Shown piece after piece: positions 12,511-13,195 of a DNA stretch of 64,000 nucleotides (position 1 is the stretch's first letter; each line of letters begins with the position of its first letter). Location: assembly GCF_041886205.1 (NCBI RefSeq), contig NZ_CP169029.1. One strand, 5' to 3'. The notes under the pieces were generated by a model. That model searched no databases and was not told the origin of the DNA. It worked only from the letters and a program-made list of their open reading frames with translations. Source of the DNA: Escherichia coli (GTDB lineage Bacteria > Pseudomonadota > Gammaproteobacteria > Enterobacterales > Enterobacteriaceae). Both the position numbers and the translations under genes were made by a program.

Positions 12511-12534
12511 AAATAATACCGTTCTCTTTATAAA

Positions 12535-12580
12535 GTAAAACCCCCGAACTGGTAAGGAACGGGGGTTTTACTTTATTTTG
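12535..12580. terminator. bidirectional rho-independent terminator after acpS
   Basis: gtaaaacccccg / cgggggttttac 12-bp stem with T-rich tracts on both strands. Confidence 0.6.
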
Positions 12581-12921
12581 TGCAGCACGCACCCTCAATG
12601 AGGATAATTATGGATCAGTGTGGTTATCTTTTACAAGCAACTTGCAATCTTTAGTATAAAAACTCGAGCCTTGACGAAGAAATCGATATTGATGGCAAGA
12701 TTAACGTGACCGCCAATTCATAAGTACATTAAAATTGGCTTCGTTATTAGAGATTTTGCTGTGCTTTACACCATGCCACTGAATTCCCCCATTGAAACGA
12801 GTGGTGTCGTCAAAGCTCTGGTGTGGAGTGCAGCATGTACCCTCAATAACTCGCACGTTCAGTTTTGGGGAGATGTAAGGGCTAATCTGAACGGCTGCAT
12901 TCCTTGTTTAAGGAAAAACGA

Positions 12922-13002
12922 ATGACTGATTGCCGATACCTGATTAAACGGGTCATCAAAATCATCATTGCTGTTTTACAGCTGATCCTTCTGTTCTTAT
13001 AA
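12922..13002 (+). CDS. shoB: small hydrophobic type I toxin ShoB (26 aa)
   Basis: ATG at 12922 preceded by aggaaaaacga; translates to MTDCRYLIKRVIKIIIAVLQLILLFL then TAA; too short for the ORF track; lies in the acpS-yfhL spacer as in E. coli. Confidence 0.85.
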   Translation: MTDCRYLIKRVIKIIIAVLQLILLFL

Positions 13003-13195
13003 CACAAGGAAACGTACTTAAGGTGCGTCCGGTGAACCAGTCGGACGCGCCTTTAATAACTATAAATAAGTGTCTGGGCAGATACTATATAAATTAACTT
13101 AGTGAATGATTATGCCAATGTCATCAATCAAAAAAATATAATAGCGTTAAGGTTTCTCTATAAAATAATTAACACTCTACATCCAGAGTAGAATA

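Follow-up and report, generated by a model that had tools for sequence, protein, structure and literature searches.

The gene pair shoB/ohsC, formerly ryfB/ryfC, is a type I toxin-antitoxin locus of Escherichia coli K-12 described by Fozo et al. (2008), as that work is relayed in later papers. Both RNAs are expressed in K-12; cells that overproduce ShoB undergo membrane depolarisation within minutes and die (PMC8309996), and the small RNA OhsC inhibits ShoB synthesis (PMC4147584). OhsC was predicted to pair through its 5' end, where 19 nt are complementary to the shoB 5' UTR (PMC3919570). Moreover, the shoB mRNA has to be processed if it is to be translated efficiently (PMC7667032), and the region of the divergent shoB and ohsC promoters has two binding sites for CpxR (PMC9600279). 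The mechanism of repression was left open in a review, which considered a standby site like that of tisB/IstR-1 and, alternatively, some other translational element of the kind seen in hok/Sok (PMC4147584). A survey published in 2024 found the pairing region to be variable and concluded that a sufficient pairing potential between shoB and ohsC could not yet be affirmed (PMC11264685).

Other type I systems of E. coli offer points of reference. The divergent system tisB/istR-1 has a ribosome standby site about 100 nt upstream of the ribosome binding site, and its antitoxin acts by blocking that standby site. With regard to zorO/orzO of E. coli O157:H7, chimeras have shown that the body of OhsC can functionally replace the body of OrzO, and wild-type OhsC does not repress zorO (PMC3919570).

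Here we analyse shoB/ohsC in a stretch of 64,000 nucleotides of E. coli DNA, referred to as the window. Judging from the sequence, the acpS-yfhL spacer of the window is the site of this already known, well-conserved chromosomal type I toxin-antitoxin locus, and what our analysis adds to it is modest: the exact coordinates of OhsC, a rare shortened OhsC allele, and the co-variation of the recognition block at the population level.

RESULTS

The shoB gene and its chromosomal setting

The original prediction recognised in the spacer an ATG-initiated ORF of 26 codons whose product it took to be ShoB, and both points are borne out. The frame runs from the ATG at 12922-12924 to the TAA at 13000-13002 and encodes MTDCRYLIKRVIKIIIAVLQLILLFL, and its coding DNA is base-for-base identical to K-12 shoB (b4687). 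In CX12 and other genomes, DNA that is 100% identical to the window carries between acpS and yfhL the RefSeq label 'type I toxin-antitoxin system toxin ShoB' (WP_000128776.1). An NCBIfam scan of the 26-aa peptide gave 0 matches, there being no HMM for ShoB; because NCBIfam has no ShoB family, the identity of the peptide rests on the identical DNA together with the RefSeq and K-12 annotation. The mechanical ORF list gives the shoB frame only as a 32-aa, TTG-started ORF (12904-13002). It is routine for ORF finders to miss shoB, and as a gene call this matters for annotation only. The ribosome binding site AAGGAA of shoB is reported to be 100% conserved in E. coli (PMC11264685, Table 2).

The gene order around shoB, as read from the ORFs of the window, RefSeq and K-12, is recO-pdxJ-acpS-shoB-yfhL-yfhH. 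At the same position K-12 MG1655 has shoB (b4687) with the divergent ohsC (b4608), and the acpS-yfhL spacers of the window and K-12 align with 94% identity. Positions 12400-13250 are 100% identical in the complete E. coli genomes CX12, CX08, VE-T9, XJ5.2, 6EVA and wlxctx60. The region was matched in all but one of the complete E. coli genomes (5,425 of 5,426); every match was chromosomal, and the shoB locus occupied a median of one place per genome, as expected of a single-copy chromosomal locus. The coordinates of the features discussed below are collected in Table 1.

Table 1. Features of the shoB/ohsC locus and its flanks, in window coordinates
Feature	Position	Strand	Basis
acpS (holo-ACP synthase), upstream flank	12130-12510	+	ORF; RefSeq annotation of identical DNA
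Palindromic hairpin, 17-bp stem and 13-nt loop; bidirectional terminator of acpS (+) and ohsC (-)	12530-12576	both	Inverted repeat, folds, Rfam
ohsC sRNA gene, 70 nt	12530-12599	-	Rfam RF02495; K-12 b4608 mapped by alignment; fold
OhsC 5' end, target-recognition region, 5'-AUUGAGGGUGCGUGCUGCAC	12580-12599	-	Sequence; duplex
ohsC promoter: -35 TTGTAA (12636-12631), 18-nt spacer, -10 CATAAT (12612-12607)	12607-12636	-	Promoter scan
shoB promoter: -35 GTGACC (12706-12711), 18-nt spacer, -10 TAAAAT (12730-12735)	12706-12735	+	Promoter scan
Inferred shoB mRNA, ~315 nt, 5' UTR ~180 nt	12742-13056	+	Start from -10 box (+/- 2 nt), end from terminator
OhsC target site in the shoB 5' UTR, ending 75 nt upstream of the start codon	12828-12847	+	Direct repeat; duplex; co-variation
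shoB Shine-Dalgarno (SD) sequence AAGGAA, 6 nt before the ATG	12910-12915	+	Sequence
shoB CDS, 26 codons and TAA, small hydrophobic toxin MTDCRYLIKRVIKIIIAVLQLILLFL	12922-13002	+	Translation; K-12 b4687 identity; RefSeq
Predicted shoB terminator hairpin, 13-bp stem followed by UUUAAUAA	13020-13053	+	Fold -22.4 kcal/mol, z -5.2
yfhL (4Fe-4S ferredoxin), downstream flank	13196-13456	-	ORF; RefSeq annotation of identical DNA

Elsewhere in the window, full-length Rfam matches well above the gathering score were found for AsrC, the antisense RNA of rseC (5290-6121, -), the rncO leader (8905-9119, +), the GlmY sRNA (21797-21944, +) and the iscRS stability element (51984-52093, +). The ryfA RNA was likewise matched over its full length at 59350-59654 (-), with 313.8 bits. 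The Salmonella ryfA locus encodes a small toxic protein, TimP, that is repressed by the sRNA TimR (PMC7667032), and by analogy the window may hold a second locus of the small-toxin type at 59350-59654 (-).

OhsC and the ends of the two transcripts

It had been anticipated that the antitoxin would lie divergently upstream of shoB on the minus strand, and that its coordinates could not be fixed from sequence alone. Its location is supported by a covariance-model match to RF02495, by the mapping of K-12 b4608 and by a 20-bp duplex with the shoB 5' UTR. The caveat about its coordinates does not stand, since alignment to K-12 places the gene by homology: b4687 coincides without a difference with 12922-13002 (+), and b4608 maps to 12530-12599 (-). 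In the scan of the whole window, Rfam ohsC_RNA (RF02495) matched 12532-12596 (-) with 73.4 bits (gathering score 50, E 1.5e-9). The same model reached 34.9 bits on the plus strand, below the gathering score, because the terminator is palindromic. In the predicted fold, OhsC begins single-stranded, continues with a small GUGC/GCAC hairpin and closes with the 17-bp terminator, at -30.5 kcal/mol in total (z -4.8). In the RefSeq records that carry the window allele, no ohsC annotation lies under the match.

The suggestion that the symmetric acpS terminator also ends a minus-strand sRNA proved correct, as the 17-bp palindrome is the 3' hairpin of OhsC by inverted-repeat search, folding and Rfam. 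Its arms (12530-12546 and 12560-12576) are 17 nt each and 100% complementary around a loop of 13 nt. On the plus strand, as the terminator of acpS, the hairpin folds at -26.9 kcal/mol (z -5.7), and on the minus strand it is part of the OhsC fold given above. A near-palindrome in the 3' region of ohsC has also been remarked on elsewhere (PMC11264685). At the other end of the locus, the hairpin at 13020-13053 and the UUUAAUAA that follows it are, according to the folding model, likely the terminator of shoB. A simple terminator scan of 12400-13250 found nothing, because the two hairpin loops (one of 13 nt, the other at the limit of 8 nt) lie outside or at the edge of its rule; both hairpins were instead revealed by repeat finding and folding.

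The hexamers of both promoters are those published for shoB and ohsC from more than 2,000 E. coli genomes (PMC11264685, Table 2), and the position of the ohsC promoter puts its transcription start at about 12599 (-). The shoB mRNA, taken as 12742-13058, folds at -108.1 kcal/mol, with a z of -4.9 against shuffled sequences.

The stem of the shoB terminator (alignment columns 279-312) varies among Escherichia alleles, mostly by one-sided changes that keep a G·U pair (U-A to U-G, U-G to C-G); across these alleles, no pair of the stem was altered on both sides.

Pairing between OhsC and the shoB leader

Positions 12580-12599 and 12828-12847 form a 20-nt direct DNA repeat that is identical at 18 of its 20 positions. 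A match of this kind occurred in 0 of 100 shuffled windows, and 0 are expected by chance. As ohsC is read from the minus strand, this repeat gives OhsC a 5'-terminal stretch of 20 nt that is complementary to the shoB leader. The resulting window duplex has 20 contiguous pairs, 18 of them Watson-Crick and 2 G·U, at -37.4 kcal/mol; the K-12 duplex has 19 Watson-Crick pairs and 1 G·U, at -40.1 kcal/mol. The complementarity of about 19 nt that links the 5' end of OhsC to the shoB leader is thus present in the window, with 20 pairs.

Natural variation of the pairing region

For comparison we collected 5 species-level Escherichia loci and 63 metagenomic loci, among which 61 cover the full locus and represent 30 distinct alleles; the Escherichia albertii and Escherichia whittamii loci (L003 and L006) are cut about 200 nt upstream of shoB and contribute target sequences only, without the OhsC side. 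A metagenomic locus that looked like a toxin-only locus (L070) was rejected and excluded as a probable chimeric assembly: in L070:1-2015 the homology begins at window position 12791, inside the shoB leader, and the 2 kb upstream match no complete E. coli genome.

Across the 61 full loci and their 30 alleles, hardly any variation is seen in the ShoB ORF, the SD sequence, the promoters or the greater part of the leader. The pairing region, in contrast to these elements, is variable and occurs in two major classes. In class A, to which K-12 belongs, the DNA on the OhsC side reads GCA TGCACCCT CAA, the target has the same sequence and pairing is perfect. In class B the OhsC side reads GCA CACGATTC CAA and the target GCA CTCGATTC CAA, with one U·U mismatch. 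The difference amounts to an 8-nt block, UGCACCCU in the class A target and CUCGAUUC in the class B target, which is replaced on both the sRNA and its target. The remaining minor variants of the pairing region are all transitions that give G·U pairs.

When the 20 proposed pairs were scored over the 9 distinct haplotype combinations of the 61 loci, 98.9% of the cells were standard pairs and 5 pairs of the duplex were changed on both sides; in the control, in which the partner strand was slid by 1-3 columns, only 22-51% of the cells paired. Cognate duplexes range from -33 to -40 kcal/mol, and cross-class duplexes reach only -17 to -23.5 kcal/mol. Among the complete E. coli genomes, the class B target was found in 1,689 of 5,426 (31%) and the class B OhsC side in 1,696, these counts, like those of the rare allele below, being marginal ones in which each side of the duplex was counted separately. 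The share of class B is consistent with the alternative ohsC -35 hexamer reported in 33% of E. coli genomes (PMC11264685).

Replacement of the block on both sides constitutes natural compensatory evidence for the predicted OhsC-shoB duplex and supports the pairing model. The change between classes A and B may have been a single event, possibly by copying between the two direct repeats, and for this reason it counts as one compensatory event and not as five. The comparison of the classes bears on the point about pairing that the 2024 survey left open (PMC11264685). The block-wise variation in the surveyed shoB transcript (the ORF and its leader of ~180 nt) is the 8-nt core of the antitoxin target. 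It is tempting to go further and to propose that the duplex is evolving in E. coli as a matched lock and key, that the classes do not cross-react, and that the rare variant in the window is perhaps a loosened antitoxin that eases ShoB expression; we offer this only tentatively and consider it rather doubtful.

The rare allele of the window

OhsC of the window has 70 nt versus 79 nt in K-12. The difference is a deletion of 9 nt (TTAACTTTA, plus strand) between 12574 and 12575, within the linker that joins the 5' hairpin of OhsC to its terminator. The junction of this deletion was found in 14 of the 5,426 complete E. coli genomes, the target variant (TGT) in 13, so that the allele has a frequency of about 0.25%; neither the deletion nor the TGT variant occurred in any of the metagenomic loci collected. 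Scores against RF02495 were 106.8 bits for K-12, 101.3 for class B, 93.9 for the E. coli E69 allele and 73.4 for the window; the four alleles with which the window was compared span 94-107 bits, and the 9-nt deletion leaves the window OhsC as the lowest-scoring one.

Relative to K-12, the two G·U pairs of the window duplex arise from an A-to-G change in OhsC opposite U and from a C-to-U change in the target opposite G. The start nucleotide of OhsC is A in the window versus G in K-12, which turns the terminal G·U into A-U. With the A-to-G change in OhsC, the affected pair persists as G·U in the intermolecular duplex as well as inside the 5' hairpin. The Rfam consensus has a weak outer stem whose 3' half is lost through the deletion; the minimum-energy fold of K-12 OhsC does not contain this stem either. 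Since the G·U and A-U changes keep their pairs and the lost outer stem is absent from the K-12 fold, we expect, on the grounds of predicted pairing and folding, that the window allele is still functional.

One might instead regard the window allele as weakened or decaying, with impaired folding, stability or pairing of OhsC, so that ShoB would be less repressed or the system would be in the course of being lost. Its rarity (deletion in 14 and target variant in 13 of 5,426 genomes), its Rfam score of 73.4 bits versus 94-107 bits, the loss of half of the consensus outer stem, a duplex that is 2.7 kcal/mol weaker than that of K-12, and an IS1 at about the shoB -35 in one carrier strain could all be read in this way. 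However, both promoters, the SD sequence, the ORF, both terminators and the 20-bp duplex (-37.4 kcal/mol) are intact in the window. The A-to-G change forms G·U in the duplex and in the internal hairpin, the start change forms A-U, the lost outer stem is a weak one that is missing from the K-12 minimum-energy fold, and an OhsC G opposite a target U is also found in other Escherichia lineages. We therefore consider decay of the allele unlikely and keep to the expectation of a functional one. Either way, the 9-nt-deleted OhsC is a natural variant with which the contribution of the linker and of the outer stem could be probed.

Further differences were noted in the same spacer. Between the ohsC -10 box and the transcription start (12600-12606), 7-8 nt almost all differ from K-12 (TGAGGATA vs CAACAGCG, plus strand). 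This stretch is hypervariable among other alleles as well, and the adjoining -10 box is invariant. In E. coli LHM10-1 (L071), which has the same rare allele, an IS1 is inserted at about the shoB -35 (~12705), between ohsC and shoB; IS1 is also present in the acpS-yfhL spacer of other lineages (hits H11-H13).

DISCUSSION

We have very high confidence in the explanation as a whole, namely that this is the known shoB/ohsC locus, that the 5' end of OhsC would pair with the shoB leader and stop ShoB synthesis, and that the rare allele of the window is predicted to be functional. The promoter at 12706-12735 would drive shoB, giving an mRNA of ~315 nt of which ~180 nt are 5' UTR, and ohsC would be transcribed divergently from its own promoter (12636-12607), ending in the hairpin that also terminates acpS. 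The first 20 nt of OhsC would pair with the shoB leader at 12828-12847, far upstream of the ribosome binding site, and so prevent the synthesis of ShoB. When overproduced, this hydrophobic peptide of 26 residues depolarises the inner membrane, according to the literature.

The OhsC target (12828-12847) is clear of both the SD sequence (12910-12915) and the AUG at 12922, without overlap. It is this distance that points to a standby or entry type of repression: most likely, OhsC would act in the manner of IstR-1 on tisB, by blocking a ribosome standby or entry region or by leading to cleavage of the duplex, and not by direct occlusion of the ribosome binding site. In the predicted fold of the full-length shoB transcript, the target pairs in part with the very 5' end of the RNA, and the variable block lies in an internal loop. 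The SD sequence is predicted to lie in a small UUCCUU/AAGGAA hairpin, which alone has -4.6 kcal/mol and a z of -0.5, no better than shuffled sequences. A search for covariation within the shoB mRNA gave 0 compensatory pairs among 100 predicted pairs (16 alleles or species), and for this reason its intramolecular structure is to be taken as a prediction. Given that no compensatory mRNA pairs were seen and that the SD hairpin alone resembles shuffled sequences, the standby-site step is one that we infer from the position of the target.

A different route to the same outcome would be that of hok/mok/sok, in which OhsC would block a leader ORF (12761 or 12773 to 12925) to whose translation that of shoB is coupled. 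There is indeed a frame of 54 codons (GTG at 12761, ATG at 12773) that ends with the TGA at 12923-12925, overlaps the shoB ATG (ATGA) and encloses the OhsC target; nearly every allele keeps it open. However, no Shine-Dalgarno-like sequence precedes the GTG at 12761 or the ATG at 12773, and in the allele of E. coli E69, a divergent one, the ATG has become ATA. Moreover, the frame has accumulated about 9 nonsynonymous versus 2 synonymous substitutions, as expected without coding constraint, and its conservation at the nucleotide level is like that of the leader elsewhere. The frame was found to be unsupported as a conserved coding sequence of the mok type, and coupling through it seems to us distinctly improbable. 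By analogy with tisB/IstR-1, we favour repression at a standby or entry site, possibly with cleavage of the duplex, over coupling to a leader ORF.

That the spacer has no separate minus-strand sRNA, the Rfam match being a reflection of the palindromic acpS terminator and shoB a chance small ORF, is suggested by the perfect palindrome and by the plus-strand score of the OhsC model (34.9 bits), but it is effectively refuted and next to impossible, because the minus-strand match is 38 bits better and takes in the non-palindromic 5' domain, a promoter with the published hexamers stands at the right distance, and complementarity as well as co-variation links the 5' domain to the shoB leader, to which may be added that the ORF protein is invariant in almost all alleles and annotated in both K-12 and RefSeq.

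Comparison with known systems

Compared with shoB/ohsC of K-12, the locus in the window has the same acpS-yfhL site, the same ShoB coding sequence, the same divergent layout and promoter hexamers, the same palindromic terminator and the same complementarity at the 5' end of OhsC. It differs in the length of OhsC (70 versus 79 nt), in its start nucleotide (A versus G), in a duplex that has two G·U pairs, and in the 8 nt that separate the ohsC -10 box from the start, which are almost wholly changed. With hok/mok/sok the locus shares a small membrane toxin, an antisense RNA that acts upstream of the toxin start, and a toxin start overlapped by an upstream frame. In contrast, Sok is cis-encoded and overlaps mok whereas OhsC acts in trans from a divergent gene, and the upstream frame of shoB appears, from its sequence, to be free of any sign of translation or constraint. 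In zorO/orzO of E. coli O157:H7 the layout is likewise divergent, and 18 nt at the 5' end of the sRNA pair with a long toxin 5' UTR, although the toxin family, the genomic site and the copy number are different from those of shoB/ohsC. As to tisB/istR-1, it has no sequence relationship to shoB/ohsC, and shoB/ohsC is without the LexA/SOS control of that system, CpxR sites being reported instead (PMC9600279). Nevertheless, the two systems have in common a divergently encoded sRNA, a pairing of about 20 nt in which the 5' end of the sRNA engages a site far upstream of the toxin ribosome binding site, and a long structured 5' UTR, with processing reported to be needed for translation (PMC4147584; PMC7708055; PMC7667032).
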